Source: an uncultured virus (IMG/VR IMGVR_UViG_3300043436_000999)
Taxonomy: Duplodnaviria; Heunggongvirae; Uroviricota; Caudoviricetes
Virus record (IMG/VR): IMGVR_UViG_3300043436_000999
DNA: 64,000 nucleotides
Reading direction: 5' to 3' (one strand)
The notes beneath the pieces are model-generated. The model searched no databases, was not told the origin of the DNA, and was given only the letters and a program-made list of their open reading frames with translations. Both the position numbers and the translations under genes were made by a program. The stretch's first letter is position 1. Each line of letters begins with the position of its first letter. Shown here one piece after another: positions 9,501 through 64,000 of this stretch.

Positions 9501-9949
9501 TTAACCTCATCAGCCTTACGGAACGTTTCGTTCTCTCCAAGAATATTGAAGAAGTTAATACCTTCCACAAACTGTTCTGTATAGCTGGTTTCCCGTTGAT
9601 CTTCTGTGAACATGGCATCGCCCTTGTTCTCAAACTGATCGACAAGTCTATACGCTTTTTGGATGGAGCGTTCACCCCATCCCTTAGAACCTTCACCAAT
9701 AGTAAAGGCAAGGGCTGCATCGCCAACTTCTTCTCGCGTTAGCTTTGATTCACCCATAGTCCAACGTCCGTTTAAGAACGATGGACTAAGCAAGCCAAGC
9801 GATACCTTCTCATTAAAAATCTGTTGCTCATTCATGTTTGGTTTCTGATCGCCAAACATGGATGTTGGATTTGCAAAACTTACAACACTCTGCTCCGAAG
9901 GAAGAGGCTTTCCAACCTCTTCGAGAAGCTTAGTTAAGTCGTTATTCAT
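557..9949 (-). CDS. Giant internal virion (ejected) protein, gp16-like position, polyvalent protein with two HExxH zincin-like domains
   Basis: 3130-aa ORF after the other internal virion genes. N-terminal Gly/Ala-rich hydrophobic helices; motifs VTHEMSH...EKFANG and LIHEVIH...HEFVA. Confidence 0.7.
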   Translation of the reverse strand: MNNDLTKLLEEVGKPLPSEQSVVSFANPTSMFGDQKPNMNEQQIFNEKVSLGLLSPSFLNGRWTMGESKLTREEVGDAALAFTIGEGSKGWGERSIQKAYRLVDQFENKGDAMFTEDQRETSYTEQFVEGINFFNILGENETFRKADEVKKILQTVDPEWTIDKQLSALTDWQDSNPEVNEFIAAAGINIQDYVLETKNDRAFIFNINQAVQDARINVGMNLFEQDNGFFSKLGNSLIEGIKDPLILRDMALTSVATLGLGTVAGLAGVSARALSGSVAAGVNSSRALRGLNLVRQAANTAALATGPMTGLIEGPAYAAIRAIVPSVGRSAVSTMSARGLALALEGGVAGVVSSLADQKADNEWRSLVFADTEKALKYNLGETALAALTGSLGAVGVASAVRFGLGSIGDYKYYKTGDWDGFRRQIANSMDTWATTRDGDIVWGNTLSDGRGIFFGDTVDKFMKSYDGRDFTNVMLNGSRLFGKFNPRIAGKMNLDVKRVMPVIEEFEKATGVAGEAAMLSVDGVDPETRGIFNQLVNESNLADADLTIDDVKAVLVDYNTKQQPQPPTATGRLLTEAPVATQQVEVARQLKRLVAAKSVDRRLEQIGLSSATVLNKAEAILGRSINLSSDADFQNFITAARYEAASVDESQVVNTFKRIVTGDFGGGRVIPKEVVDSIFVAAFGDKPIVVTATGSNKNFAVVVDPKNKDVFATKRTLEKGEDGQLSIKLRADDPKSPFFSKDVLTVDTDTLQAKLVEVNEKLNKAWNDVKTAKIKETIEKVKKTKVKEELVKTFAEGTSVTVDSIKKIFDLTKEEATVAKIIMDSLGYDGDSNLLRIASLVADDRNAEIFFEGNTALIRATKSSDVGTVTHEMSHYLQVMILDELTPDARHAIGITDEIWEKFKDWVGYTGTEWTEKASEKFANGMSQYVRRVMSGDGRAPKTQVQRLFHRIGDHLGDLGQRFKSQEALEAGMIMSKEAEDVFEALFNRSNSKIGELFDSAYQGLFKRLPKEQRLAIGKEILGEMAFNDYLAKKEIEFEKAKPVVDKLAEAAATKPVSVTSVVEEIYQKVNNATRKVIKEAIASGMSRESVLTFLKDEEAKIGTVTSIDARPANKLTNPTKLTDEELAKFAAIESPFISVVDDVKVKFIDAAFKTEESKLFFSKEELQAEIKRRAASKVSKTETDIGISSELKADLEELLGPGTFVDSAGMKVELTPTETVVATKVATVVETAKVDKEHATAVIAALEEGRTLDAVEAERAPIVTPEIINVEETPVSVETELVALAAISTEASATADNLGESIPAAKKAEVKTVVAAAVANPSRAKALLEKYLTTKLEYDDVFGTSAKAEELTTNTRQIPSDLVKQFLEAELRAQISRHTIEGIMGLDDKNFNRFLELEKLATKHEGPLDALVREPTPANLQATANTIKWSMEDLKVYVSGLLHKRNGSLIAEFVGAKKFVERHIDTIKETRKYLEDKKSAYDAARAVPEANRSKAQEDLIETYDEAKGTVTQFTNSVERIKIGVLGNTVLEVVPQPTVKAISNDIQTDWLKLTNLGKTVWDIISKAEPSINVDDIVKTLDSRIDRLIEMVEKDAEPTTKLTKDKLITLTPEQKAEAWASGLIKSKAATSFAKKIIQNLELNAERKSKGTKKIIGSEEAMGAGGEAVNIVEGQEKLVPKYTKEEKKDFYVKQHAESEAIRNLATLFHAHLVDIGKTELAAVFMARREGMLQKASDIDNTARLLENYGIQLTVNSVENRISDLRNELTTFVDDLAEDEAKAIRKLLDLEFKTKKQKTLAQRISPEDMEDLSERLMSAGPLDVIRAPDYLIRAAQESSSDLYRKILSGELENGVQVLEELANNPQSKYKTLAGQILNEHRDYLETVGVWVAKLDNKTEGLYFYDNIFLNVREGKVSVPTLIHEVIHAITAREISEAGFDTITGHGYDAYITALRESVQSGVDLNGNKLKASVKSIASAYLATIDWIDRTPEALELLGSDYKEKFVGMLGVTETPTFTHYALTNLHEFVANTLTDSDVLMFFAGAKASIGASKTRPVKEMLNGISRSIFPRATEEQLKNADKILQETIVSNLVTGVVKSKVEPVDQFGMVMVPTPGYVPFRLVGTELQIPEVVSLGGKAELRSALKSAKGRVYAQMRAMTSTQDVIDAAKSVGADARELEAKLAELVDSAEVRRRNLLAAGLHEEMEPEDLEIINSMIKGTKAFSQPAVDHLTRRTKPSATVATASRIKFSGKNYRDLTDDERRSFVSDVLLPTVEEKLGNRNRSAGIYSLITDSKVGKVFNSLVGGGAAYGDTADAQSMMLQFFSKIYDPLMDLRDGELSGTFDLFSVDMVNAETNNMYSAAGLLDIQRKITAQVTKTAELEQLYETAWLYLADLESLPNNAVHRELIVELIKGVHKYNTLVSGLLEKYGTLITPMKPTEYGTIHKVNMLAFEQQDQFVDALVKHALAKERESKDLSIITLDALGWVKLTRDSVSDDIVSVEVKEGSPLGYEPAVYKYSEFKNMAKKASLGKDALTIYEDALVSSRNYVNWDIYRSRGDNYTALRHTMTVAKNRYLNIDSPESRGGKPRTEGVGGGREMDITRILSHNDIAKNPELAKYFDKDIYGLIYQQLRSSVTDAIMTKYITDMFGVKMSFLDLVEVSRKHGEASRGQLAKTEQDSVNRGYDRIKDIWESNTGRLMASRDGLDRHYRSLLESGSRPLVLSASGLRAALTSTGETARAILASNHNRGMLRQVIPNFIQTLKLFSRDKRQTIQQVASATHWLRGLSSDHLLLRAEMNPNNPFGGTIMGSKRGGWFKSWAASWAGAKERNKLEDSIVGKAANYLSIPASRLGAPLAFVNDVTTTLHVQNMQYNLTTNSAKFMALAKLLKSANPDSLSDFASLATKCGLSPKEAIDLSALGLLDPARIQVMIDAAKDQRNYSEGLLDIQRLFIWADGDPIKIDTINRMGALVNATSRHTNTDPTLLDLRINQSPYARSMGVFMQFLLSHSTQEIGRRRRYTTTAYSKHLAGLVMMESIAYSLTRTKDDDDDSWIWEDAKEKPIQTVIRVGTSLPLLGSYQYLSALIRMGLLETHSQITGEKSDERYRIPDLYSGPSENVPKKALDMIKDLL

Positions 9950-9995: not shown

Positions 9996-12900
9996 TCATT
10001 GTTCTACAAAATTATCTACTTTGTCGGAAACGTATTCCACAAAGTAATCCGCTTCCTTCGAAACATAGTTTTCAAAGTCACGAATAACTTGTTTCGGTTG
10101 ATTTCGAATACGGTTACGTTCAGCTGAAAGCGATATGGATCTCATATACGCTTCATGCGCTCTAACGTATTCCTGTCTTCGATACTTATTTGTTGGGTGA
10201 ATCTTAAGAGCAAGTTGTGCTTGTCTAAGGATTTCACCTGTAATCATTGTAAACTTTTCGATTGGATCGCTGACGGCAGCTGCTGCCTTTGCAACTAGAT
10301 TGGTAGATGGCAGAGTCAAACTGAATAGCTGATCTTCTGCATAACCTTGCTCTAGTGATCTAATAACAGCACCACCAATATCAGTTACCATTGGTCCTTG
10401 AATAAGAGACCAGTTCTTACTACTGATTGGTTTAGAATAGATGAACGAAGCTCCAACGCCCTTGATGACGGCGGATACTCGCTTGAAATCCATGAAGCCG
10501 TTTGTGCTTTCGCTTTCTTCGACTTCTGGTTCAATAACATCCATGACCCAGTTATCACTAAGGGTTGGCTTAGAGTAGGAGATCACAATAGGTTTACCAG
10601 CAACTGTAGTAAGTACGGTCTTCTGGTCGATTAGACCATTGCTACGTACACCAAGTCGTGATTCTGGTTCTGCTGTTGTTTCAGTTGTAACACCCAACAA
10701 TGCAAAGCGTCTATTTTGATCTTCAATAAATTGACGGCCTTGTTCAACCTGTGGCGCACCACCGGGTTCAACAAGTTTCCGTACTTCGTTTCCAAACTTC
10801 GACCAACTAAAACCATCCGATGTCTGTGGACGATCTTCTTCAGTGCTTCTTGGTCTCATTGTTGGAGCTAAGAATTCACCTAGTGTCTGTTGAAACGGCG
10901 TGGGTGCTTGAACAACATTGCGCCATTGCGTTTGAAACTCAAGTTCTTCTGGTTGTAAGGTTTGTTTGCTTGTTGAATCAACAGTCATATCATACCTAGA
11001 CTTATCAAGCATCCAGTTTGTACCCATCCCCTTCCACTCATACATGAGCAGCGGCTTACCAGCAATACCAGTTACACCAGTACGACGAGATAATCCCTTT
11101 TCAGCGCCAGTATAAACATAGCGTTCACTGGATGATGGCTTTAGATCAGTCGTATCAATAAAGCCCTTTACTGGTTTTCGTGGTTCACCATCTTTAGTAA
11201 CAAACCACTGATGCGTACCCAAGTGATTAACATACTCGTAAGTATAGTCTTCATTTGGGATTGATACAGGTATTGGTAGACTCATGCCTAGTACTGGACC
11301 AAGAGATACCCATTGTGTAGTTTCACTGAGAGATTGTTTAGTGATACCATTCGCTGTTAAGTAATCCACAACTTTAGCATGGTCTACAGTACCGTCATTA
11401 ATCTGTCTTGTAGCCCACTGACCGAACTGTTCCTTAGTCACACGCTTCATTGCGTTACGGTGAACATCGGTACCAGCGAGAGACTTACGGATGGGAGTTG
11501 GCTGGAATGTGGCAACTATACTTCCACCTTTTTGTTGTAAGACAACACGTGAAACCAGTTGAGATTTATTTATGTTGCTCTTTTCAGTATCTACACCAAA
11601 AACGAAATCACCACGCTCTAAACCATCCATGTATTTCTTCATGTTTGTTTTGGCTAGAGAAATAGCTTCCTGTACAGTCTTCGCTCCACGGGTATCTTTG
11701 ATAGCCGCTTGAGCAATAAGCAATGTTCGATTGTCTTTTTTACCGCCCAATACAGCCTCAGCAATAGCCATCAGGTTTGTTCCCGGATCTCCCGGAATAC
11801 TGGAAAGATCTGCACCCTTAACAGTAGACGCTGCAAGAACGAGTGCTGTTGGGTTTTCTACGTTTGGTGCTTCGCTAAAAATACCAAACTGACTAAAGGT
11901 ATTTTTATCTAATCCATTCGTATCCCAATTGGAGTCCAATATAATAGCTAAATCCTGCTTACCATCATCTTGCAAATCATAGCTAATACCAGATCCGGAT
12001 GTAAATGTAGGTCTTAGTCCAGCTGGTAGTGGTTGTACGTCTCGTCTAGCTGGTACTAGACCGGCTCCAGTAAACTTAAAATCTTTTAGAGATTCATTTG
12101 TTCTTTGGATTACTGCCGCCCACAACTCATCGTCTTTATATTTAGTCTTTGTGTTAAAAGCAGCTTCGTAAAGGTGGCCTAGTGCTATTTCTGAAACCTG
12201 TCTAAGAGTTTCGTTAACATAGTTTCCAGTTAGATTGTTTTTCCAAGCAGCTGGATCAATGCCATCTCGTTCTAGTCGTACTGTTAGTTTGTCAAAAACA
12301 TTTTCTCTAAGATCTGCCATTTGAGTAGTAAGTAATACTTTGTCTTTGACTTCTTCAGAAACAGTATCCCTACTTCCAGCTGAATAGGTACCAAGAAGTT
12401 GACTCTGGGTTCCCCTGTCTCGAATTAACTTCCTCATTCGTTGTAGTTCACTCAACACGTCAGATGACATCTCTCCTCTGCGCTCTTGAATGTATTTTAT
12501 TGGACTTCCGTTTCCTTGGTGTCCTGTAGCATGCGCTTCTAGTTCATTAATAACAGTAGCCATACCAATTGCTTCTGCTTTACCAGAAGCCCTGAGCATG
12601 TTAATGTTTTCTTGTACTCTATCTGGTGGGGTGAATAGCATGAACGCAGCCATTGCTGCGGTTCTAGTTACTTCATTTTGAAGACCACCAACAATTAGAT
12701 CTGCCTTAGCAGCATTAATGGCTGCTCTGTTTGTTCCTGAGAACACACCAGAATAGAACTCATTTTCAGGTGATGAAAAAGCATCAGCTATTCTAGCATC
12801 CCATTCTTCAAGTGGGGTATTGTTTCTGAGTAGATCATCTAGAAAGCTGGAGAAGAACTCCGTGTGTATAAAACCATTAGCGGGAAGAACAATGTTTGCT

Positions 12901-14606
12901 TTCTTAAGTTCTGGAGCTAGTTCCTTCCATGATTTTAAAACACCATTCTCTTTATATGGATTAACTCCACCAAGCTGAACCCTTTCGATCATTGCTTCAT
13001 TAATACGCTCTGGTGATGCGGTGGTCTCTTTGTGTTTTTGAAGGTCATCTATAATCATTAGATTTTCAAGACGTCTTTTAAGAAGTGCGTCGGAATCCCC
13101 TGAGCCACCACCGCCAGTTGAGTTCGGTATATCTAGGCGTGTGCTGAGAAAGTTATTAAACTTATCAACAGTTGGTCTAAACGTTTTATAGATAGTTTCA
13201 TATGGTGCCTTTTCCGCCTCAACCGCATTTGCAGCAGCCACGCTTAATTCGCTTGTGGAATACTTATATGGAAGAGATTCGCCAAAGAATTTAAGACCAC
13301 TAACTGTTTGTGTTAGATCTCTAGCAAAGGTTGGAACTCCGGCTTCAACCACCTCGATTAAGTCTTGTTCAATACGGGTGATAGCCAAGTTTCTACGGGA
13401 AATTAAACCAGCTCTTTCCGCATCGCTTGCTACTTTAATTGCAGAATCATACGCTGCAATTTCAGCTGTAGCGGCAGAGATTATAGAATCTACCTGATCG
13501 TTTACGGTTTTAACCTGAGACCGTTGAGCCTCTGCCTGTCTCTTAAATGGAGCAAGTGAAATAGAATCTAGTGCAGTAGTGCGATTATCGTTAACGCCTA
13601 CAATTACATTATATTCTTCTTTTCCTAAATTATTTGCCGCAAAATTATTATCCCACTTGCCACCAAAAAACTCCATTGCAAAATCATTCTGCTCTTGTTC
13701 AAGAATAGCTTCTGATTTGGAAATGTTAAAGGCAAGTGCATTTAGTTTAGTTTGAACAGATCTATGTTCTTGTAATTCAGCTTCGGTCTTATCAGCCTTA
13801 GACGCTAAACTGTCGGCCTGTTTAGTTAAAGCAGATAGTTGTTCCCACTGCTTACCTAGACTTTTGTTAAGATTGATAATCCGATCTTGTCGTTTCTTTT
13901 GCGTTGCGTCTTTTACATCCTGAATATTTTTAGCGTTTGCATCACGCATCTTCGCTTGAATCTCAAGAAGTTCAATCCTTTCTTTACGAACAGCTGCACC
14001 AAAGGCTCTATCGCCCATTGTCTTCTGTTCCTTAGCCTCAGCGTCTTGTGCCATTTGACCAAGCTGAGCGATTCTTTCTTCAAGAGCTAAAGATTGATTG
14101 TCGGACGTTAGTAATTTCTCTCTAAACTGTAAGCTGTCATCGTTAAACGCAGACAACTTTACATCGTCTGCGGTTTCTCGTCTGGCCTTCTGACCGTACA
14201 GTTCAAACCCATATGATGTTTGTCTAGCTTGTTCGAGTAGATAGGAACTAGTTTGACCTTCACCATCAGAATCAATTTCGTATCCAACAATATCTTTAAC
14301 ACCTTTTTTGTATTCTGAGATTTGAGCATCTACTGAATCGAAATCATTAATGGCTGATGCGTGATCAATGCCCATCTTTGTTCTTGTCTCAAGATCCTCT
14401 AGTAGCTTCTTCTTTTTATTTCTCTTATCTTCAATATCGTAAGATACGAGTTCTGTTCCAAACTTGGCAACAGATTCACCAATGGCACCCCAGTCAATTC
14501 CTTGACCAACGCCAACGACATTCTCTGGAAGCTTAACTTGTGTTTCTTGATATATTGGTTGATTAGGGGGATTTAAAAATACCCCCGGTCCTTGCATTTC
14601 AATCAT
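9996..14606 (-). CDS. Internal virion protein (gp15-like position)
   Basis: 1536-aa helical/coiled-coil ORF between a gp14-like gene and the giant gene. No recognised catalytic motif. Confidence 0.55.
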   Translation of the reverse strand: MIEMQGPGVFLNPPNQPIYQETQVKLPENVVGVGQGIDWGAIGESVAKFGTELVSYDIEDKRNKKKKLLEDLETRTKMGIDHASAINDFDSVDAQISEYKKGVKDIVGYEIDSDGEGQTSSYLLEQARQTSYGFELYGQKARRETADDVKLSAFNDDSLQFREKLLTSDNQSLALEERIAQLGQMAQDAEAKEQKTMGDRAFGAAVRKERIELLEIQAKMRDANAKNIQDVKDATQKKRQDRIINLNKSLGKQWEQLSALTKQADSLASKADKTEAELQEHRSVQTKLNALAFNISKSEAILEQEQNDFAMEFFGGKWDNNFAANNLGKEEYNVIVGVNDNRTTALDSISLAPFKRQAEAQRSQVKTVNDQVDSIISAATAEIAAYDSAIKVASDAERAGLISRRNLAITRIEQDLIEVVEAGVPTFARDLTQTVSGLKFFGESLPYKYSTSELSVAAANAVEAEKAPYETIYKTFRPTVDKFNNFLSTRLDIPNSTGGGGSGDSDALLKRRLENLMIIDDLQKHKETTASPERINEAMIERVQLGGVNPYKENGVLKSWKELAPELKKANIVLPANGFIHTEFFSSFLDDLLRNNTPLEEWDARIADAFSSPENEFYSGVFSGTNRAAINAAKADLIVGGLQNEVTRTAAMAAFMLFTPPDRVQENINMLRASGKAEAIGMATVINELEAHATGHQGNGSPIKYIQERRGEMSSDVLSELQRMRKLIRDRGTQSQLLGTYSAGSRDTVSEEVKDKVLLTTQMADLRENVFDKLTVRLERDGIDPAAWKNNLTGNYVNETLRQVSEIALGHLYEAAFNTKTKYKDDELWAAVIQRTNESLKDFKFTGAGLVPARRDVQPLPAGLRPTFTSGSGISYDLQDDGKQDLAIILDSNWDTNGLDKNTFSQFGIFSEAPNVENPTALVLAASTVKGADLSSIPGDPGTNLMAIAEAVLGGKKDNRTLLIAQAAIKDTRGAKTVQEAISLAKTNMKKYMDGLERGDFVFGVDTEKSNINKSQLVSRVVLQQKGGSIVATFQPTPIRKSLAGTDVHRNAMKRVTKEQFGQWATRQINDGTVDHAKVVDYLTANGITKQSLSETTQWVSLGPVLGMSLPIPVSIPNEDYTYEYVNHLGTHQWFVTKDGEPRKPVKGFIDTTDLKPSSSERYVYTGAEKGLSRRTGVTGIAGKPLLMYEWKGMGTNWMLDKSRYDMTVDSTSKQTLQPEELEFQTQWRNVVQAPTPFQQTLGEFLAPTMRPRSTEEDRPQTSDGFSWSKFGNEVRKLVEPGGAPQVEQGRQFIEDQNRRFALLGVTTETTAEPESRLGVRSNGLIDQKTVLTTVAGKPIVISYSKPTLSDNWVMDVIEPEVEESESTNGFMDFKRVSAVIKGVGASFIYSKPISSKNWSLIQGPMVTDIGGAVIRSLEQGYAEDQLFSLTLPSTNLVAKAAAAVSDPIEKFTMITGEILRQAQLALKIHPTNKYRRQEYVRAHEAYMRSISLSAERNRIRNQPKQVIRDFENYVSKEADYFVEYVSDKVDNFVEQ

Positions 14607-20927: not shown

Positions 20928-23504
20928 TTATCCTGTTACAGTCCAACCCTTTGCCGTTGCGATTGTTGGGGTATCTCCTGCGACCCCCCAGTTACCTGAT
21001 ACGTTTATGGTTTTTGAAGTTACTGTTGGTAAGTTCGTGTAAATTTCGTTTAACTCATCTGCTGATAATACACCAGGATTTGGTAAAAAAATGTTTTGAT
21101 TAAATCCTGTTGCTCTTATACGAGATAGACTAGAACAACCAGAGACTATACTAGAGAAAATTGTAGTTGTTGCTGTTTGTTGAAAACTTAGGGCTGGTAG
21201 TTCTACTAAAGAAGAACAATTCTGAAACATTGATTGATACGATGTTACAGTACTGAGTAGTGGTATTACTCGTAATAGTGGTATTGTTTTTAAACTACTA
21301 CAGTTAGAAAACATACCATTAAAATTAACGCCACTAGCTAAATTTAGTAATGGTATTGTTTGTAAGCTACTACAGCTAGAAAACATACTACTAAAGTTAG
21401 TGCCATTACCAGTATTCAATAGTGGAATTGTTATTAGTGATTCACAGGTAGTAAACATAGAGTTAAAATCAGTACCCCTTGATGTATCTAGTAGTGGTAT
21501 AGATTTTAAAGAACGGCAAAAATTAAACATACTGCTAAAGTTAGTGCCATTAGGTGTATTTAGTAACGGTATTGTTTGTAAGCTACTACAGCTAGCAAAC
21601 ATAGAATTAAAGCTAAGACCTTTTGACGTATCTAGTAGTGGTATAGATTTTAAATTAACACAGCTAGAAAACATATTACTAAAGGCAGTGCCACTACCTG
21701 TATTAAGTAATGGTATAGTTTTTAAACTACTACAGCTAGCAAACATATCACTAAAATTCGTATTCTTTGCGGTATTTAAATTTGGTATAAACTGTAAACT
21801 AATACAATTACTAAACATACTATTAAGGTTTGTTCCCTTTGCTGTATCTAGTAATGGTATAAACTGTAAGCTACGACATTGAAAAAACATCTGACTAAAG
21901 CTAGTGCCATTAGATGTATTTAGTAATGGTATAGTTTTTAAACTAGTACAACCAATAAACATCTGCGAAAAATTAGTTCCACTAGCAGTATCTAGTTGTG
22001 GAATAGTTTTTAAATTAAAGCAACCGTTAAACATACCTGTAAAGTTAGTACTACTGGATGTGTTTAGCTTTGGAATGGTTTTTAAACCGTTGCAACCATT
22101 AAACGCATTATCAAAGGTACTATGAAGTCTACACCACTCAGTTCCTATTATTTTTTGTAATGATCTCATACCATAAAATTGTAAACCTTGAAGAGACGTA
22201 TATGAATTAAACGTTCCAATGTACTCAACTTGCTCTAGTAAATTCCAACGTATTGTTTGTGATATGGTGGCAAATACAAAAGTGTTTATACTATTTCCAG
22301 CTATTTTAAAATCTAAAAAGTTTACTCCAGATGCTGAAGATAAAGACGTGTGTCTATTTTCTAAGTTAATTGAAGTTAGATTTTGACCAGCCTGTGGTGT
22401 AATAGTTATCGTAACTGTTTTATAGCCGCGAAACTCATCTTGATTTGTTATTGCTGCGTATGAAGCACTATCGTATTGTTTCTGAGCAGCAACATTGGAA
22501 TTTACATTCGCAGATGTACCATCACCCCAGTCAACTGTATAGTTACCGGATACGGTAAATCTTACAAAATTAGAGTCGTTGTTATATACTGCAAATGTTC
22601 CTACAATTTTTTGTTCTCCAGCAGAAACTGTTGGAGATGGTTTCCACCCACCGATTGTAACTGTTGTTGGTGTTGAGAATTTCTTAGTAGTATTTGCCGT
22701 AATTCCAGTTACAGCTCCACCAGACACTGTAGCATATGCAATAAAATCATCACTGGAGATACCATTTAAATACACAGTAGGTTGTTGAGTATACCCAGAT
22801 CCACCAGCAGTAATTGTAAATGCTCCAAGATTTCCAGTAACAACAGCCGTGGCAGCAGCATTACTTCCGCCACCACCAGAAAAAGCAACAGTTGGCGCTG
22901 ATGTATATCCAGTACCACACACTATTCTTGGAATTGCTACGGCTTGCCTTGTTGATCCTGCTGTGCTTAAAGTAATTGTAGGTACTCCTACATATCGACT
23001 TCCAGGATTTGTAATGGTAATACCAACTAATCTACCGTTTTCAATCACAGCAGTTCCTTGTGCTGTTGTTCCACCAGTAGCTGGAGCGGAAAAGGTAACT
23101 GTTGGTGTACTTGTATATCCTTCACCTTTATCGGTTATAATAACTTCAGCAACAGTATTCCACAAAGTTACGGCAAGTACGTTACCACCTGATACAAACG
23201 CTACTCCTTCTGCTCCACTGCCTCCACCACCGGATATAGTGACTGTTGGTGCTGTAGAATAGCCTGTTCCTAAGTTTGTTATATTAACGGAAGTAACGCT
23301 TCCATTTACAAGAGCAACAGTAGCAGTCGCTCCAGACCCATTTCCATTTGTAGGTCGAACGTATTCTGAATCGGAAGAGTCTTCAAGAGTATTAAAAGTA
23401 TCTTCGCTGTTTAGAAAGGTTTTTGACGATGACATTACACCGCCAGTTAAATTTTTTAAATTAAACTTTCCAATATAACCGTTATTGTGTCTATTTTTTC
23501 TCAT
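20928..23504 (-). CDS. BspA/DUF285-type leucine-rich repeat protein with N-terminal G(S/T)GYT beta repeats; likely adhesin or receptor-binding protein
   Basis: About 13 24-aa repeats SLKTIPLLNTSNGTNFSSMFxxCx, several GTGYSTAPTVTISGGGG repeats, and a TVDWGDG (PKD-like) motif. Confidence 0.8.
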   Translation of the reverse strand: MRKNRHNNGYIGKFNLKNLTGGVMSSSKTFLNSEDTFNTLEDSSDSEYVRPTNGNGSGATATVALVNGSVTSVNITNLGTGYSTAPTVTISGGGGSGAEGVAFVSGGNVLAVTLWNTVAEVIITDKGEGYTSTPTVTFSAPATGGTTAQGTAVIENGRLVGITITNPGSRYVGVPTITLSTAGSTRQAVAIPRIVCGTGYTSAPTVAFSGGGGSNAAATAVVTGNLGAFTITAGGSGYTQQPTVYLNGISSDDFIAYATVSGGAVTGITANTTKKFSTPTTVTIGGWKPSPTVSAGEQKIVGTFAVYNNDSNFVRFTVSGNYTVDWGDGTSANVNSNVAAQKQYDSASYAAITNQDEFRGYKTVTITITPQAGQNLTSINLENRHTSLSSASGVNFLDFKIAGNSINTFVFATISQTIRWNLLEQVEYIGTFNSYTSLQGLQFYGMRSLQKIIGTEWCRLHSTFDNAFNGCNGLKTIPKLNTSSSTNFTGMFNGCFNLKTIPQLDTASGTNFSQMFIGCTSLKTIPLLNTSNGTSFSQMFFQCRSLQFIPLLDTAKGTNLNSMFSNCISLQFIPNLNTAKNTNFSDMFASCSSLKTIPLLNTGSGTAFSNMFSSCVNLKSIPLLDTSKGLSFNSMFASCSSLQTIPLLNTPNGTNFSSMFNFCRSLKSIPLLDTSRGTDFNSMFTTCESLITIPLLNTGNGTNFSSMFSSCSSLQTIPLLNLASGVNFNGMFSNCSSLKTIPLLRVIPLLSTVTSYQSMFQNCSSLVELPALSFQQTATTTIFSSIVSGCSSLSRIRATGFNQNIFLPNPGVLSADELNEIYTNLPTVTSKTINVSGNWGVAGDTPTIATAKGWTVTG
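21270..22110. repeat. 72-bp tandem repeats encoding the LRR units
   Basis: Recurring AAACAT...TAGT..TGGTAT.G units with a 72-bp period; AT-rich. Confidence 0.8.
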
Positions 23505-34492: not shown

Positions 34493-34532
34493 GAAAGAAA
34501 AAAACCAAGAGTCCCCTTTCGAGGACTCTTGG
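34493..34532 (-). terminator. Intrinsic terminator after the major capsid gene (T-phi analogue)
   Basis: Minus strand CCAAGAGTCC-TCGAAAGG-GGACTCTTGG followed by a run of T. Confidence 0.85.
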
Positions 34533-34586
34533 CTAGATATATGATCACCGTTCCATTACAAAAGTAATAGAAGTATCCTACACTAA

Positions 34587-44938: not shown

Positions 44939-44959
44939 CCTAGCTCTAACTCAGGGACT
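44939..44959 (-). promoter_or_regulatory. Candidate phage RNAP promoter upstream of dut/nrdJ and the structural genes
   Basis: Minus strand AGTCCCTGA-GTTAGA-GCTA-GGAAAC, same spacing as the copies at 412 and 58948. Confidence 0.6.
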
Positions 44960-56277: not shown

Positions 56278-56505
56278 TCAACTTTGTTCTTCGATGTAGA
56301 TGTCAACTTTGACATGGGTAGCCTTCTTTGCTTTCTTTGCGCCAAGGTACTTGGCTAAGTAGGATAGAAACTGAGTGTGCATGAAGTCACTTGGACACAT
56401 GAAACTCAATGTTACTTCTGTCTTCTTCTTGTCAATCATAGCCTTGTGAATAGACTTGACTGCTTCTTCGATTGCCCCTTCATTATCTACGATGTGTACT
56501 TTCAA
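56278..56505 (-). CDS. Hypothetical protein
   Basis: 75 aa coupled to the RNAP stop. Confidence 0.55.
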   Translation of the reverse strand: MKVHIVDNEGAIEEAVKSIHKAMIDKKKTEVTLSFMCPSDFMHTQFLSYLAKYLGAKKAKKATHVKVDIYIEEQS

Positions 56506-58898
56506 TGGAAGAAGTACTCACTTTCTAATACCTTGTTGATGTCAAGTGTACCCGTTTCAGGAACAGGTGGCAACTCAACACCAAGATACTTTTCTAATTG
56601 CTCCTTAAGATTTGCTAGCAGATTCTCACTGTGGAGTTCAACAAACTTGCGCTTAGTAATCTCACGCATCTTGTTTACCAGTGGAGCATGGCAACCATAC
56701 GAGTCATGGATAAACGAGAAGTCTTCGATACCCTCATCTGCCATCTCACAGATGGTGTTGACCATATGTGCAGCATCGAAGGAGTGGATGACGTTTGGTG
56801 AGATACCATTCTTTGCACGTCGTGGGTGAACAGCATAGCGATCAAACTCAGCGAACAAAACTTGCCGACGCTTGACCAACGTATAGATATCAACCGATCT
56901 GTTTATCATCGGGTAGTATCGGTGACGAACAAGGAACCCAGTAGGTGTTACCCAAGCAAGGTGCTTGTTCATTTCAGCAGCAATCTTCGTGACTTCCTTA
57001 AGCCACAACTTACCTTGGTTTGGAATCTTCAACAGATGATCCATAGCCTTGATGATATGATCGGCTAGATAGTTAGCAGCCTTGTGTCGTTCCTTGATGT
57101 CGATGAACAACAGGTTGCCATCATTCACTAGACCGTCCACAATGCCACGCCTAGTGACACCATAAGGATCTGTCATAACAGCCCGCTTCACAACACCGCG
57201 ACCAACAGATCCCTTCCAGTACTCCATAAAGATCGTTGCCCAATCATCCTTGCCAACACACGCTGCAACACTAGCAGTCACAGACTTGGCAACAACTGAG
57301 TAAGCATCTCCTGGCTTATCTGATGGTAACAGATTAACCATAGCACCGATGACTGGATCTCTTGCAATAGCAGCCCAATGTTGGATACCATTGCATGAAC
57401 CATCCATACCAATCGGAAGCTGTGTCATACCATCAGTACGAAACAACTCGAACACAGCAGCAAGACGTTGGAAGGATTGATTCTTCTTTGGCTTATCGTC
57501 TGCCCACAAACGAACCGTACCATATGGATCGTTATGGATACAGCGTAGCATATCCATGTTCTTATCCACCCATGCCACACGATCAGCGAATGGTAACTTG
57601 TCTTGGTCAAACAGATTCGCAACCTGTACCTTCAACCAATACAATCCGTCAGGTGTTTGCTTCATGGGATTGGCAAACAACAGCAATGACTTGTCGTGAT
57701 CTCCCGATTGTGGGGACAACAGATCAGACAAGGCATAGGCTCGACCACGAAAGTCGAACGTCCAACCATGATAGAAGTATTCGTGACCAATCATGTCGTT
57801 TGCAATCTTCAATCGAAGGTGCATACGAACGGTGTCATTCAATCGTCTGAACCAATCCTTCCAGAGATTGACCCGAATACTTTCTTCGTTTCCTGAATCA
57901 GAAAACAATTTAGGATCGGGTTCATATGATGGAAGGTTGCCAACCCTAGTGTTGTTCTCGAATAGATTCTTCATCACCTCGAACACACGTTCGTTGACAC
58001 ACCATTCGGTAGACATCAAACGATTAGCAGCCTCGACACACTTGGACGATGGCTCTGATCCAACATACTTAGTCTTATACGTATCGTCTTGAAAGAAGAG
58101 ATACGACGATGACACAATACCCTTGCGGAGATGTGGTGAATGTGTACCACCACACTCGTTGATTGTGTGACGTACTGGTGGAACAATCATGGGGGCATAG
58201 ATAATCTTTGCCATTGCCATAAGTTCTTCATGCACGGCATTCAAGTTATCCGTGACAGAATCAGATGGCATCAACCACGTTGTTCTGTTTCCCTTACTGT
58301 CGTAAGAGTGACGTTCAACACACAACCCTACCTTGATTAACACCTCGATAAGATGAAGACACAAGGTATCTCCATCCTTCTTTGGGATTCTGCAATCAAC
58401 AGATGCACTATGTGTCTTCATAAACTGTTGCATCTGACGCTTCGTCCACTTTGTTCCAAGAGAACGTGAAGCAAGAACCCATGCACCTGAGTTGTCTGAA
58501 CGTGTCTGATGGAATGTACTTGCGAGTTCAAGGTTGACACGCATATGTTTGATGACTGACTGTAACTTAGGAAGAGAGCCATCAACAAACACAAAATCCA
58601 AATACGTAGAGACAATGATAGCAGAGACAGTCCTAGATCCAAGTTTGTAGATCGGGGTAATCCAAGAAAGGTTTCTCTTAGATAACTCGCTAAGATATTC
58701 CTCAATGGCTTGTTCAGTCTTGTCTACCAGAGCATAACATAAATCTGTTTCAGGTACTCCAAGGATTCTATTACGTTCCTTACAGTAATCCATGATAGAC
58801 TTATCAGCCATTGCTTCTTCTATGACAGCATTAAGATTAAGTTTATGTTCCTTATTCTTTTCTGCTATCCACTTCTTACCATAACAGAGATTGTTCAT
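56502..58898 (-). CDS. Single-subunit DNA-dependent RNA polymerase (T7-type)
   Basis: DFRGRAY, motif A DGSCNGIQH, motif B R..VKRAVMTDPYG, motif C IHDSYG, PNVIHSFDA and C-terminal YFFH. Confidence 0.97.
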   Translation of the reverse strand: MNNLCYGKKWIAEKNKEHKLNLNAVIEEAMADKSIMDYCKERNRILGVPETDLCYALVDKTEQAIEEYLSELSKRNLSWITPIYKLGSRTVSAIIVSTYLDFVFVDGSLPKLQSVIKHMRVNLELASTFHQTRSDNSGAWVLASRSLGTKWTKRQMQQFMKTHSASVDCRIPKKDGDTLCLHLIEVLIKVGLCVERHSYDSKGNRTTWLMPSDSVTDNLNAVHEELMAMAKIIYAPMIVPPVRHTINECGGTHSPHLRKGIVSSSYLFFQDDTYKTKYVGSEPSSKCVEAANRLMSTEWCVNERVFEVMKNLFENNTRVGNLPSYEPDPKLFSDSGNEESIRVNLWKDWFRRLNDTVRMHLRLKIANDMIGHEYFYHGWTFDFRGRAYALSDLLSPQSGDHDKSLLLFANPMKQTPDGLYWLKVQVANLFDQDKLPFADRVAWVDKNMDMLRCIHNDPYGTVRLWADDKPKKNQSFQRLAAVFELFRTDGMTQLPIGMDGSCNGIQHWAAIARDPVIGAMVNLLPSDKPGDAYSVVAKSVTASVAACVGKDDWATIFMEYWKGSVGRGVVKRAVMTDPYGVTRRGIVDGLVNDGNLLFIDIKERHKAANYLADHIIKAMDHLLKIPNQGKLWLKEVTKIAAEMNKHLAWVTPTGFLVRHRYYPMINRSVDIYTLVKRRQVLFAEFDRYAVHPRRAKNGISPNVIHSFDAAHMVNTICEMADEGIEDFSFIHDSYGCHAPLVNKMREITKRKFVELHSENLLANLKEQLEKYLGVELPPVPETGTLDINKVLESEYFFH

Positions 58899-58947: not shown

Positions 58948-58969
58948 CCTAGCACGGAATCAGGGACTG
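58948..58969 (-). promoter_or_regulatory. Candidate phage RNAP promoter immediately upstream of the RNAP gene
   Basis: Minus strand CAGTCCCTGA-TTCCGT-GCTA-GGAATCC. The predicted transcript would begin with hairpin GGAATCCAAC-G-GTTGGACTCC. Confidence 0.6.
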
Positions 58970-62299: not shown

Positions 62300-62529
62300 T
62301 GGTTTGCCTCCTTTAGTTGAACAACAAAGTTCAGGTGAAAGACTTCGAATGTCTCCACAACTGGACGGTATGTCCACGTAGACACATTCTTTACACAAGT
62401 AAACTCCACGAGTGTGGTTTGAAACATCGCACACGCATATCCCTCTAGAAAGAGTCGTGCATCACGCTCCGTTTCAAATCTACCAAGATCAACGGTTGAT
62501 GTATAAGTCTTCTTCTGAAGGTGGAACAT
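62296..62529 (-). CDS. Early hypothetical protein
   Basis: 77 aa with AAGGAG RBS. Confidence 0.55.
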   Translation of the reverse strand: MFHLQKKTYTSTVDLGRFETERDARLFLEGYACAMFQTTLVEFTCVKNVSTWTYRPVVETFEVFHLNFVVQLKEANQ

Positions 62530-62532
62530 TTC

Positions 62533-62727
62533 TTACTCCTTGTTTGGAAAGACACAGCCAACGATTGTCATTTCGGTTCTATCGAAGAAGTTGAATTCTG
62601 TTTCTTCGTTAGACACCTCACGACGAACCAACTCATTCTCTACTTCCAACCACGACATAGTTGGTGGAAAGTATCTAACAAACTTCTCATCGCCAAACCA
62701 AATTGTTGCAATGGCGTGATCGGACAT
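62533..62727 (-). CDS. Early hypothetical protein
   Basis: Start at MSDHAI after GGAGG. Confidence 0.55.
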   Translation of the reverse strand: MSDHAIATIWFGDEKFVRYFPPTMSWLEVENELVRREVSNEETEFNFFDRTEMTIVGCVFPNKE

Positions 62728-62754
62728 AGTACCTCCGTTGAAGAAACACACGAT

Positions 62755-62786
62755 GAAACGTATCGGATATTTCACCCATACATTTC
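62755..62786 (-). repeat. Hairpin repeat copy 1
   Basis: Minus strand GAAATGTAT-GGGTGAAATATCC-GATACGTTTC. Confidence 0.75.
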
Positions 62787-62793
62787 GGAACAT

Positions 62794-62912
62794 CTCGCGG
62801 GGGATTCTAACCCCCGACATAGTACCACATACGTTGGGAAGACGTATGCGTTGCCACTAGATTATCTTCCCTTGATAATCTGTGACCTAACTATGTGTCA
62901 CGACAGACCGAG
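62794..62912 (-). ncRNA. Candidate structured RNA with kissing loops, a pseudoknot and a T-arm-like hairpin
   Basis: Stems at 62882-62901, 62859-62881, 62827-62849 and 62799-62815 with mutually complementary loops; closed by CTCG/CGAG. Confidence 0.6.
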
Positions 62913-62916
62913 TAAA

Positions 62917-62948
62917 GGAACGTGTGGGGTATTTCACCCACACCTTCC
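62917..62948 (-). repeat. Hairpin repeat copy 2
   Basis: Minus strand GGAAGGTGT-GGGTGAAATACCC-CACACGTTCC. Confidence 0.75.
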
Positions 62949-62952
62949 GCGA

Positions 62953-63282
62953 TTAGTTGCAGAGGAAGATGACGGTTTCGGTTGAGTCCATCGGGAACGA
63001 TTGACCACACACCTTATACTTCGGCTCAAACTTCTCCGTATAGAGACGAGCCCCAGTCCCGAACGAATGGAGAAGAGCATTCAGTCTCGACTTCGTTGTG
63101 GGAGTATTCCACCCACACAAGCACACCGACAACGCATGAGCGGCACGATGATATCGTGCGATACGATTCCCGTGCAGGAACACCTCACACCCCTTATCCG
63201 TGACTAACACCTCTGTGTTGCCACGACGGAAATACTTGTTCGAACGAACTGCGATGCACATTGCCTGTTCAATTTGACGCAT
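62953..63282 (-). CDS. Conserved-looking early phage protein
   Basis: MRQIEQAM...NTEV...VFLHGNRIA...GWNTPTTKSRLNALL; GAGGAG RBS. Confidence 0.7.
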   Translation of the reverse strand: MRQIEQAMCIAVRSNKYFRRGNTEVLVTDKGCEVFLHGNRIARYHRAAHALSVCLCGWNTPTTKSRLNALLHSFGTGARLYTEKFEPKYKVCGQSFPMDSTETVIFLCN

Positions 63283-63382
63283 TATCGCTTCTCCTCAAGG
63301 TGAGAGACCATGTTGCCAGCCACGTAGATACATCCCGCCACAACCATTGCGACGGTACACAACACGAACAACTCAATCCACA

Positions 63383-63571
63383 TCATCGCCGCACCACCTT
63401 GTAACGGCGAGAAACTTCCGCGAAGAATGCCCACCCAACGAAGATGAGCAGTTGACCACCAATCAAACCCTGCACCACACTCTCGTACTGAACTTCAACG
63501 AACGAAAGGACGGTGAGAACTAGACCGTTCACAAACACCCACAGAAACGCAAACTTCTCTTCAATGTCCAT
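63383..63571 (-). CDS. Small two-TM early membrane protein
   Basis: Start at MDIEEKF after GGAG; two hydrophobic segments. Confidence 0.5.
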   Translation of the reverse strand: MDIEEKFAFLWVFVNGLVLTVLSFVEVQYESVVQGLIGGQLLIFVGWAFFAEVSRRYKVVRR

Positions 63572-63616
63572 GACGTATGCTCCGAAAGAGTTGCGAGTGA
63601 CACACACACAATGAAA

Positions 63617-63648
63617 GAAACGTTCGGGATATTTCACCCGAACGTTCC
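63617..63648 (-). repeat. Hairpin repeat copy 3
   Basis: Minus strand GGAACGTTC-GGGTGAAATATCC-CGAACGTTTC. Confidence 0.85.
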
Positions 63649-63745
63649 AGCGTCATTATCTTATTCATAGATAACGCGGCACTATGAATTGCACAAACTT
63701 GGGATAACGTACAGAGAACGTAGCAGTTTGAACTACACTCAACGG
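63649..63745 (-). ncRNA. Second candidate structured RNA between repeat copies 3 and 4
   Basis: Three stems; loop ATTCATAG is complementary to CTATGAAT in the neighbouring hairpin. Confidence 0.45.
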
Positions 63746-63749
63746 GAAA

Positions 63750-63782
63750 GAAACGTTCGGGATAATTTCACCCGAACGTTCC
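63750..63782 (-). repeat. Hairpin repeat copy 4
   Basis: Minus strand GGAACGTTC-GGGTGAAATTATCC-CGAACGTTTC, identical to copy 3 except for one inserted base. Confidence 0.85.
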
Positions 63783-63785
63783 TGA

Positions 63786-63983
63786 TTAGTCACACTCTAC
63801 GCCCCAGTTTGCGTCGATATCTTCGACGTTGAATCCCTGCGGGACAACCCACACGGGAGCGGGACACTTTGTGTGAACATAGTCGGCCAACTCAATATCC
63901 TCCCAACTAATCCCGACACTTGCGGGATTCACACGTCCCCATTCAATCGGCCTATCGACATCGGCCCAAACCAATGCCACCAC
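63786..63983 (-). CDS. Early hypothetical protein (probably 5' truncated by the window edge)
   Basis: The open frame appears to extend to the window end. Confidence 0.45.
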   Translation of the reverse strand: MVALVWADVDRPIEWGRVNPASVGISWEDIELADYVHTKCPAPVWVVPQGFNVEDIDANWGVECD

Positions 63984-64000
63984 ACACTTTGTGGTGATAT

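Follow-up and report, generated by a model that had tools for sequence, protein, structure and literature searches.

In the early mRNA of phage T7, neighboring genes are separated by RNase III sites, which leave the messages with a hairpin at their 3′ ends. In the lambda nut site, present once per operon, a boxB hairpin with a stem of 5 bp stands together with boxA, and boxB pentaloops follow the same logic of a GNRA-like loop on a varying stem that is described below. In T4-type phages, promoter-early stem-loop (PeSL) cassettes have been reported (Arbiol et al. 2010, PMC2839356; Comeau et al. 2014, PMC4122927). According to the available part of the first report, PeSLs carry a sigma-70-type promoter, their stem-loops are strong terminators, and the repeats were proposed as recombination sites for modular shuffling (PMC2839356). 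Pistol ribozymes associated with phage genes have also been described (Harris et al. 2015, PMC4604425), and the role suggested for self-cleaving ribozymes near phage genes, in the available portions of these sources, is the processing of polycistronic transcripts (PMC4604425; PMC6765202).

The hairpins described here belong to a T7-related lake phage whose clade has genomes of ~65 kb. The window, i.e., the whole 64-kb stretch of DNA that was analyzed, gave no blastn match to cultured phages, and its RNA polymerase is less than 35% identical to that of any cultured phage. The early messages of the clade are presumably transcribed by the host. One gene anchors the comparison:

56502..58898, minus strand: T7-type single-subunit RNA polymerase gene, used as the anchor for fetching related early regions

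Besides the window, 19 related phage loci carry the hairpin family, with RNA polymerase identities of 38–100%, and every hairpin of the family precedes the polymerase gene. A metagenome scan with the polymerase returned near-identical genomes only; the early region of the window occurs in about 20 lake-water DNA runs. The four hairpins that a sequence-only reading had reported are present on the minus strand of the window, which is the sense strand, and their two pairs bracket segments of 101 and 130 nt without a convincing ORF, as that reading had held. The features are, in the direction of transcription:

63750..63782, minus strand: hairpin D, 12-bp stem, loop UGAAAUUAU, tail UUUC (covariance model 60.0 bits, E 1.4e-14)
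63649..63749, minus strand: insert 1, 101-nt non-coding cargo between hairpins D and C
63617..63648, minus strand: hairpin C, loop UGAAAUAU, tail UUUC (covariance model 56.3 bits)
62953..63282, minus strand: 109-aa early gene of the Kyano_Gp96 family (PF23790; Pfam E 3.5e-23)
62917..62948, minus strand: hairpin B, stem GGAAGGUGUGGG/CCCACACGUUCC, loop UGAAAUAC (covariance model 54.0 bits)
62787..62916, minus strand: insert 2, 130-nt non-coding cargo with a predicted three-way junction
62755..62786, minus strand: hairpin A, stem GAAAUGUAUGGG/CCGAUACGUUUC, loop UGAAAUAU, without a U tail (55.0 bits)

Hairpins C and D have identical arms, and the stem of hairpin B contains one G-G mismatch. Hairpin D begins 4 nt past the stop codon of the upstream ORF (63786..), and hairpin B begins 5 nt past the stop of the Kyano_Gp96-family gene. 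An SD-led ATG at 63571, opening a 62-aa ORF, lies 45 nt downstream of hairpin C, and the SD-led start of a 64-aa ORF (62533..62727) lies 27 nt downstream of hairpin A. The common apical core noticed earlier, GGGTGAAAT, occurs exactly 4 times in the 64 kb, always in this region and always on the minus strand. Since the core 9-mer is not enriched when one mismatch is allowed (14 found against 14.7 expected), the signal lies in the exact clustered copies together with their arms; a repeat finder likewise groups the four hairpins (families D4 and D18). A look-alike of hairpin B inside the Kyano_Gp96-family gene (63090–63127) is absent in relatives and was treated as coincidence.

Selection acts on these hairpins at the RNA level, a conclusion that is strongly supported. 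Stems vary while pairing is kept, as had been proposed: in 11 hairpins, taken from the window and from two of its close relatives, pairing holds in 96.2% of 132 cells and 7 of 12 pairs changed on both sides, a level reached by none of 500 shuffles. The first covariance model, built from 11 hairpins and searched against 79 sources (1.3 Mb, both strands), gave 35 matches at E ≤ 1, 34 of them on the sense strand, and the sole antisense match is the mirror of hairpin B′ (E 0.92). All 38 matches of the second model fall on the sense strand upstream of the polymerase gene (window and 19 loci). In an alignment of 30 distinct hairpins fitted to the covariance model, 96.7% of 360 cells are paired and 9 of 12 pairs changed on both sides, again reached by 0/500 shuffles. 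The stem pairs of 35 hairpins comprise 357 Watson-Crick, 47 G.U, 3 A.C and 13 other pairs; the copies are related by descent, so that neither cell nor G.U counts are independent events. The excess of G.U (47) over A.C (3) indicates that the fold is selected in RNA, and together with the covariation among distant homologues and the strict sense polarity it upholds the earlier proposal of selection on RNA structure. The stem-loops have fold energies of −13 to −24 kcal/mol, on the sense strand only. In Rfam searches of the 64-kb window at gathering thresholds, only two tRNAs passed, and hairpins and inserts were unmatched; a search of 62600–63900 at E ≤ 10 gave one 16.7-bit chance match only, and the early regions of two relatives (L009 and L005) gave no family match.

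The same pair counts bear on the idea of a DNA-level element, such as an N4-like hairpin promoter, an operator or an attC-like recombinase site. Copies confined to the leading end of the genome in one orientation, a fairly constant distance to the next start codon (16–49 nt), and cassette gain and loss exactly at the element would suit such a site. However, the sense-strand bias of 47 G.U against 3 A.C is what is expected of RNA and not of duplex or template-strand DNA, and no recombinase, integrase or transposase was found among 30 proteins scanned with Pfam and PHROGs. In sequence comparison with Pfam, PHROGs and PDB entries, neither the 3130-aa nor the 1536-aa virion protein resembled a polymerase, and the stem and loop of the N4 promoter are much smaller than those of these hairpins. 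We therefore regard a DNA-level role as very improbable. A promoter for the phage polymerase was rejected, since the copies are confined to the region upstream of its gene and differ in loop length. On the sense strand, no sigma-70-like promoter was found at the hairpins or in the inserts, with a consensus that may not be that of the host; a 10-of-12 site in insert 2 (62851–62879, plus strand) is antisense and stems from a palindrome.

The family hairpin combines a 12-bp stem with a GNRA-like loop and a UUUC tail. Its loop is the most conserved part, and its stems are freely rewritten with pairing kept. The prevailing loop UGAAAUAU occurs in 15 of 35 hairpins, and every variant fits (U/A)-G-N-R-(0–3 nt)-A-(U/C/A), including the GAAA loops of L040, L043 and L060 and the pure GAAA tetraloops closed by A-U (AGAAAU loop) of L032. 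No conserved flank was found beyond the UUUC tail. Conserved loops of one GNRA-like pattern on rewritten stems would also be expected if the hairpin were the recognition site of a specific RNA-binding protein of phage or host, the stem merely presenting the loop, as in antitermination-factor recruitment by lambda boxB or in a coat-protein operator. The resemblance to boxB covers a GNRA-like loop of variable length in an early transcript, conserved on varying stems; the loops fit G-N-R-(N)0-3-A, yet are mostly 8 nt long on a 12-bp stem, several copies share one operon, and no boxA and no N-like protein came to light. A possible reader might be sought in the Kyano_Gp96-family gene, which co-occurs with hairpins in 11 of 12 loci, the twelfth having a truncated flank. 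It was, however, not detected in 8 of 19 hairpin-bearing loci, and its confidently predicted structure (pLDDT 94.6) has no fold relative (best Foldseek E 0.14, best VIA Z 4.4), nor did a PDB sequence search yield a match; it was set aside as a reader. No other candidate reader emerged: no arginine-rich N-like protein is evident among the early ORFs or in family scans, the flanks hold no conserved boxA-like element, and GNRA loops are also generic stabilizers. Recognition by a dedicated protein thus seems rather unlikely as the main explanation, and yet the conservation of UGAAAUAU exceeds what a generic stable cap needs, which hints at a specific reader outside the model preferred below.

The hairpins occupy gene boundaries and share part of the grammar of intrinsic terminators. 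Seventeen of 36 begin 4–12 nt past the stop of an ORF encoding 45 aa or more, an SD-led start follows 16–49 nt downstream in 17 of 36, and a single hairpin between two genes is the default arrangement. Like an intrinsic terminator, the element is a GNRA-type stem-loop followed by U residues and a C, in the sense strand right after stops. In contrast to true terminators, which have at least five U, the early hairpins have AU-richer stems and a tail of UUUC only in most of the 35 (none in hairpin A), and no U-rich tract of about five or more U was found directly past their stems. Family-like hairpins downstream of the polymerase gene differ in this respect, as runs of at least five U follow 11 of 13 distinct ones. 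One example lies behind the capsid gene:

34503–34534, sense strand: hairpin after the capsid gene, 14-bp stem, GAAA loop, run of eight U

A loose pattern scan gave 61 sense hits upstream (412 kb), 21 sense hits downstream (860 kb) and 1 antisense hit, and a simple terminator scan flags only C and B among the four window hairpins. Because several early hairpins stand in series upstream of the polymerase gene, they cannot be efficient terminators, and a tail of three U may not suffice for termination at all. Data from an RNA library comprise three short assembled contigs of depth ~2, possibly contaminating DNA, which cover only 62528–62807 and 63580–63733, uncovered stretches carrying no information; the contig at 63580–63733 spans hairpin C, which fits read-through and proves nothing.

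Pairs of hairpins appear to arise by insertion or deletion of a cassette at a hairpin, as judged from sequence comparison. The sequence-only reading had treated two hairpins and their insert as the unit, whereas close relatives have one hairpin at those sites. Relatives at 92–96% identity carry one hairpin at the D/C site, and in variant v1 a single chimeric hairpin joins the 5′ arm of B to the 3′ arm of A; the indel breakpoints fall inside the hairpin. Flank classes were counted at the hairpin junctions: of 10 multi-member left-flank classes, 6 are combined with two or more right-flank classes, and of 8 right-flank classes, 4 are combined with two or more left-flank classes. The early region is mosaic away from the hairpins too, with one junction at the ribosome-binding site after hairpin A. 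DNA contigs assembled from an independent run are interrupted at hairpins A and B, and none of the mapped contigs showed a joint such as excised mini-circles would give. A conserved block follows the hairpins in five relatives.

This topology is not without precedent, although the sequence-only reading had matched it to no named system. In T4-type PeSLs, as far as the available text describes them, one phage may likewise have a cassette between two copies where a close relative has a single chimeric copy (PMC2839356). The likeness extends to repeated short intergenic stem-loop motifs between early genes in a hyperplastic region and to G-T pairs within stems. Relative to the same text, the family here differs in having no conserved promoter in its flanks (by the sigma-70 consensus), a U-tract of only three and a loop with a conserved GNRA-like motif; it belongs to a T7-like phage, and its cargo is non-coding RNA, with ribozymes in relatives, whereas PeSL cargo consists of ORFans. 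Presence and absence that vary among near-identical genomes, together with the identical arms of D and C, which resemble a target duplication, could also mark hairpin and cargo as a selfish miniature mobile element of no benefit to the phage. This seems scarcely credible, as the hairpin is kept at syntenic gene boundaries in phages whose polymerases are only 38–51% identical, neither insert was found at any other site, and no transposase was found.

The two inserts differ in structure. Both had been described as folding into several hairpins; this part of the earlier observation stood, with the hairpins themselves, for insert 2 and failed for insert 1, whose fold is no better than that of shuffled sequence (z −1.6; 15/200 shuffles as good). 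Insert 2 folds well (−48.4 kcal/mol, z −4.7, 0/200 shuffles as good), and its minimum-free-energy structure makes up 43% of the ensemble. The predicted three-way junction has a closing stem of 62890–62896 with 62817–62823 and the complementary loops seen before, 7-nt AAGGGAA and CUUCCCA (62867–62873 and 62835–62841), of which 5 nt are complementary; a further hairpin lies at 62798–62816. The hairpin at 62798–62816 resembles a T-arm, but the topology is no cloverleaf and the loop differs in the relative, and a tRNA-like insert 2 was rejected; ARAGORN found only two tRNAs in the window, at 52.7 and 53.2 kb. Neither insert matches an Rfam family at gathering or at E ≤ 10 over 62600–63900. Insert 1 is lacking in the close relatives v1 and v2, where a single hairpin stands at this site (L005/L006, L009), and a 23-mer of it was not found in viral contigs; it is present in a contig of the independent DNA run X2. 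Insert 2 is kept in variant v2 at 93.6% identity and is missing from variant v1. Exact stretches of it in viral contigs were confined to one known relative, and blastn of both inserts against all fetched loci gave a match in L009 only. In distant relatives, the cargo between hairpins is likewise non-coding. Equivalent cassettes there hold pistol ribozymes at five loci (L049, L077, L090, L031 and L032) and a hammerhead ribozyme at one (L025), whereas the window inserts match no ribozyme and the hairpin itself is none.

Self-cleaving ribozymes in relatives' cargo imply that early RNA is processed in this clade. They count in favor of the idea that the hairpins are RNase III-like processing sites releasing the cargo as trans-acting small RNAs, for example decoys, as do the compact, well-defined fold of insert 2 and the sense-strand intergenic position between early genes, in the host-transcribed region of a T7-type phage, which repeats the T7 layout with related hairpins. 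T7 RNase III sites, however, are irregular duplexes of greater length that contain internal loops and lack a conserved apical loop, whereas the window hairpins have a conserved apical loop on a 12-bp capped stem that is short for RNase III, which cuts within extended duplexes of about two helical turns. Moreover, most hairpins stand singly between two genes and have no cargo to release, the fold of insert 1 is not significant, close relatives can dispense with either insert, and no target or defence link was found. Release of trans-acting RNAs through RNase III-like cleavage is thus unlikely, and nothing supports the decoys against host defence that had been suggested.

We favor, with evenly balanced confidence, a reading in which cis-acting hairpins punctuate the early RNA and serve as homology patches for cassette shuffling. 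Selection at the RNA level, the positions of the hairpins, indel polymorphism with breakpoints in the hairpins, and mosaic flanks are observed; from these we infer the biochemical role of the hairpins and any function of the cargo. The hairpins, with a terminator grammar whose U-tract is cut to three, would punctuate the early polycistronic RNA and form or protect the 3′ ends of upstream cistrons, through termination that is leaky, through a block to 3′ exonucleases once the RNA has been cleaved, or through both, while most transcription would continue into the polymerase gene. The most plausible class of function is a signal for processing or protection, for which the pistol ribozymes located between such hairpins in relatives speak indirectly. 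The hairpin would act as a homology patch because the same ~35-nt sequence recurs in direct orientation; recombination between copies would insert, delete and swap cassettes, and the two bracketed inserts of the window would be such cassettes with non-coding RNA cargo. Of the earlier interpretation, RNA-level selection is retained, while the bracketed-insert unit, the decoys and the unprecedented architecture are not.

A more far-reaching possibility, which we consider distinctly improbable, is that the hairpins form an exchange-and-release system for small RNA genes, combining recombination joints with signals for a dedicated factor. If true, these phages would trade the pistol and hammerhead ribozymes, the insert-2 RNA and the conserved block after the hairpins, and the dedicated factor would free or protect the RNAs within minutes of the onset of infection. 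In that case, insert 2 would represent a novel class of functional RNA, possibly a self-cleaving ribozyme of a new type in the slot that pistol occupies in relatives.

The analysis yields an RNA element that is well defined, supported by covariation and captured in a usable covariance model, and that marks early-gene boundaries across an entire uncultured clade of large T7-like freshwater phages. The PeSL idea of regulatory stem-loop repeats as shuffling joints, developed for T4-type phages and ORFan cargo, would thereby apply to T7-type phages as well, and to cargo that consists of non-coding RNA and ribozymes. The biological role of pistol ribozymes was still undefined according to the available part of a 2019 review (PMC6765202), and the early regions described here offer a concrete setting for testing what phage-borne pistol ribozymes do.

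In the 64-kb window, the minus strand carries every gene, among them a T7-type RNA polymerase gene (56502..58898, minus strand), whose product is less than 35% identical to the polymerase of any cultured phage, along with genes for a primase-helicase, a family-A DNA polymerase, a T7-type portal, capsid, nozzle and terminase. The sequencing runs containing the region are labelled as lake water. The hairpin region occupies the leading, early end, ~4–5 kb upstream of the polymerase gene, and its four hairpins are named from 5' to 3' on the sense strand:

63782-63750, sense (minus) strand: hairpin D, starting 4 nt past the stop codon of the upstream ORF
63648-63617, sense (minus) strand: hairpin C, 45 nt ahead of an SD-led start codon
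62948-62917, sense (minus) strand: hairpin B, starting 5 nt past the stop codon of a 109-aa Kyano_Gp96-family gene
62786-62755, sense (minus) strand: hairpin A, 27 nt ahead of an SD-led start codon

The sequence-only reading held that the four hairpins share an apical core and vary in their stems with pairing kept, and the alignment confirms it. The exact core GGGTGAAAT has four copies in the window, confined to these hairpins and to the sense strand. Across 11 hairpins (the four plus seven from two close relatives), 96.2% of cells are paired and 7 of the 12 pairs show both-sided changes, a result equalled by none of 500 shuffles; pairing falls to 39–62% when the partner is slid by 1–3 columns. 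One further family hairpin, E, lies outside the window, within the ~1.26 kb (L009 4595-5856) that comparison with this relative places between positions 64000 and 1 on the circular map. Within the 109-aa gene, the codons of the invariant CGWNTPT motif of the Kyano_Gp96 family form a 6-bp hairpin with the loop UGGAAUACU (63090-63127, minus strand) closely similar to the apical part of hairpin B, which lies 160 nt downstream. Relatives have a Pro-to-Ser codon change that abolishes the GGG/CCC pairs of this small hairpin, and the resemblance is therefore probably due to chance.

Several other features of the genome were recorded. A ~1-kb non-coding leader precedes the first early ORF in the close variants (L009 4034-5060 and L005 1-300) and is missing from the window; it carries C-rich runs, several hairpins with the family-like cores GGGGUGAAUCAUCCC and GGGUGUCAUCC, and a short hairpin with the basal arms of C and D (GGAACGU...ACGUUCC), and is mosaic between the two variants. 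The motif AGTCCCTGAnTnnnnGCTAGG occurs three times on the minus strand (412-432, 44939-44959 and 58948-58968; 0.33 expected), with one copy ~50 nt ahead of the polymerase start codon and one beyond the last gene, and may serve the phage polymerase as a promoter or be some other RNA signal. An 862-aa DUF285 (BspA-like) gene of the tail-fibre region contains eleven tandem 72-nt (24-aa) repeats (21273-22104). Downstream of the terminase gene, two very large late proteins of 3130 and 1536 aa (557-9949 and 9996-14606, minus strand) matched no family except a sub-threshold HEPN_AbiV and were not found among PDB sequences.

The hairpin family is old and RNA-specific. An alignment of 15 polymerase homologues was used to fetch 80 loci from viral contigs, and the homologues, at 80–83%, ~50% and ~40% identity, sit on contigs of 60–70 kb. 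The covariance-model search of related contigs that the sequence-only reading had proposed gave, with a model of the 11 hairpins, 35 matches at E ≤ 1 in 79 sources, 34 of them on the sense strand, all upstream of the polymerase gene and 23 from phages beyond the window's own lineage. A second model, built from 33 matches, found the family in the window and 19 loci, with 38 of 38 hairpins on the sense strand. Among 30 distinct hairpins, in an alignment fitted to the model, 96.7% of cells are paired, and both-sided changes occur in 9 of 12 pairs (87 cells), which 0 of 500 shuffles reach. Pair counts over 35 hairpins, in which descent among the copies overstates the number of independent events, are 357 Watson-Crick, 47 G.U, 3 A.C and 13 other. 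The antisense strand would have 47 A.C mismatches; therefore, selection acts on the fold of the sense strand, at the RNA level, and the suspected selection on RNA structure is strongly supported by the G.U excess over A.C together with the both-sided changes. By our own estimate, the enrichment of the sense strand in G and T would explain only a ~1.6-fold bias in these pair counts.

Stem sequence is almost wholly replaced from lineage to lineage, and the UUUC tail is the sole conserved flank. Of 35 hairpins, 15 have the loop UGAAAUAU, and all loop variants in this set conform to (U/A)-G-N-R-(0–3 nt)-A-(U/C/A). One relative (L032) has the loop A[GAAA]U, and in three others (L040, L043 and L060) a comparable stem with the UUUC tail ends in a plain GAAA tetraloop; thus, the loop is a GNRA-like cap to which further bases may be added. 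This conserved cap leaves room for a specific reader, although a search for one found none, and the Kyano_Gp96-family protein, often encoded just before a hairpin, has no recognisable fold. Placement recurs as well: 17 of 36 hairpins begin 4–12 nt past a stop codon, and an SD-led start follows 16–49 nt downstream in 17 of 36.

Close relatives bear on the origin of the hairpin pairs. The same phage appears at 92–96% identity in four viral contigs, as it does in matching metagenome contigs. One variant (L005/L006) has neither insert 1 (63649-63749, D to C) nor insert 2 (62787-62916, B to A): its D/C site holds a single hairpin with the left flank of D and the right flank of C, and its other site holds a single chimera in which the 5' arm comes from B and the 3' arm from A. 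Pairing in this chimeric hairpin is poorer, with one G.U and one G-G, which suggests that the variant arose by deletion of the segment from B to A. The other variant (L009) has a lone D hairpin and retains B, insert 2 and A. Since both arms of D and C are identical in the window and share a base absent from both variants, insert 1 looks like a recent insertion, or else the D and C copies were homogenised. Contigs of an independent DNA run end at hairpins A and B, as expected for strains branching there, and D, insert 1 and C are intact on another contig of the same run. RNA evidence comprises three short contigs from RNA libraries, one of them spanning hairpin C.

Comparison of flanking sequences indicates that the hairpins are mosaic joints. 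For 38 hairpins, the 120 nt to the left and the 120 nt to the right were each classed by blastn. Among classes with at least two members, 6 of 10 on the left are joined to two or more right classes, and 4 of 8 on the right to two or more left classes; these counts cover hairpin junctions only. One right-flank class is shared by five genomes, behind hairpins with four different left flanks. Junctions also occur elsewhere, e.g., at the ribosome-binding site after hairpin A. The flanked-versus-single chimeric topology exactly matches the one described for the promoter-early stem-loop (PeSL) cassettes of T4-type phages (PMC2839356).

The two inserts, of 101 and 130 nt, contain no credible ORF. Both had been proposed to fold with complementary loops, and this was confirmed for insert 2 only. 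Its predicted fold (−48.4 kcal/mol, z −4.7, MFE 43% of the ensemble) is a well-defined three-way junction followed by another hairpin, and two hairpin loops of the junction, AAGGGAA and CUUCCCA, are mutually complementary; the fold of insert 1, which is present in one lineage only, is no better than shuffles (z −1.6). Between the window and L009, insert 2 is 93.6% identical, against 82.9% over a 638-nt alignment covering it and the adjacent gene. Three substitutions fall in its stems, two turning G-C into G.U and one turning G.U into a U-U mismatch; with two copies known, no both-sided change is countable. Nothing was found in support of the inserts as decoys.

Cargo between hairpins recurs in distant relatives. 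Hairpins stand 130–260 nt apart around non-coding cargo in five loci (L049, L050, L055, L077 and L090), and Rfam scans of 18 loci found six self-cleaving ribozymes:

L049 2650-2726, sense: pistol ribozyme, 60 bits (gathering 34.5)
L090 3129-3203, sense: pistol ribozyme, 59.5 (gathering 34.5)
L077 2395-2471, sense: pistol ribozyme, 57.3 (gathering 34.5)
L032 969-1042, sense: pistol ribozyme, 46 (gathering 34.5)
L031 3163-3234, sense: pistol ribozyme, 38.9 (gathering 34.5)
L025 1297-1364, sense: type II hammerhead, 45.6 (gathering 37)

They are sited in early regions, mostly within hairpin-bounded cassettes, and two family-type hairpins flank 4 of the 5 pistols. None was found in the window's own lineage or in the three loci nearest to it (L009, L005 and L015). 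Pistol RNAs are known near phage genes; the sources consulted suggest processing of polycistronic messages as a role of bacterial self-cleaving ribozymes in general and leave the role near phage genes undefined (PMC4604425, PMC6765202). A conserved block of ~55 nt lies directly 3' of a family hairpin in five genomes with differing left flanks (L049 2598-2650, L050 2866-2922, L055 2457-2512, L077 1768-1824 and L090 2109-2165), and in L049 the pistol follows it immediately. The block matched no Rfam family, and its predicted fold is weak (both-sided changes in 2 of 13 pairs, five sequences). In these five genomes, the leader ahead of the hairpin cassettes also contains a tRNA gene (L055 894-966, L077 271-343, L090 433-505, L049 1210-1282 and L050 1243-1315), and a tRNA cluster precedes the polymerase gene.

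The early hairpins use the same grammar as the phages' own terminators, with the U-tract shortened to three. The major capsid gene of the window is followed directly by a canonical terminator (34503-34534, minus strand), whose 14-bp GC-rich stem is capped by a GAAA loop and trailed by eight consecutive U; the main late terminator of T7 has the same placement. Similar terminators with an A-GAAA-U cap stand ~5.3 kb past the polymerase gene start in relatives. A permissive pattern (stem of 12 bp, GNRA-like loop, tail of UUU or AUUC) occurs 61 times sense-upstream of the polymerase gene (412 kb), 21 times sense-downstream (860 kb) and once antisense, counts inflated by near-identical loci. Of the 13 distinct downstream copies, 11 carry at least five U in a row. 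The early hairpins cannot be efficient terminators, because several of them precede the polymerase gene one after another and no promoter was found after them; transcription would read through them to that gene. That they sit directly past stop codons and combine terminator-like grammar with a short U tail points to punctuation of 3' ends, through leaky termination, protection of upstream cistrons from 3'-exonucleases, or both. The object of selection is the RNA hairpin within early transcripts, and its recurring sequence probably doubles as a homology patch.
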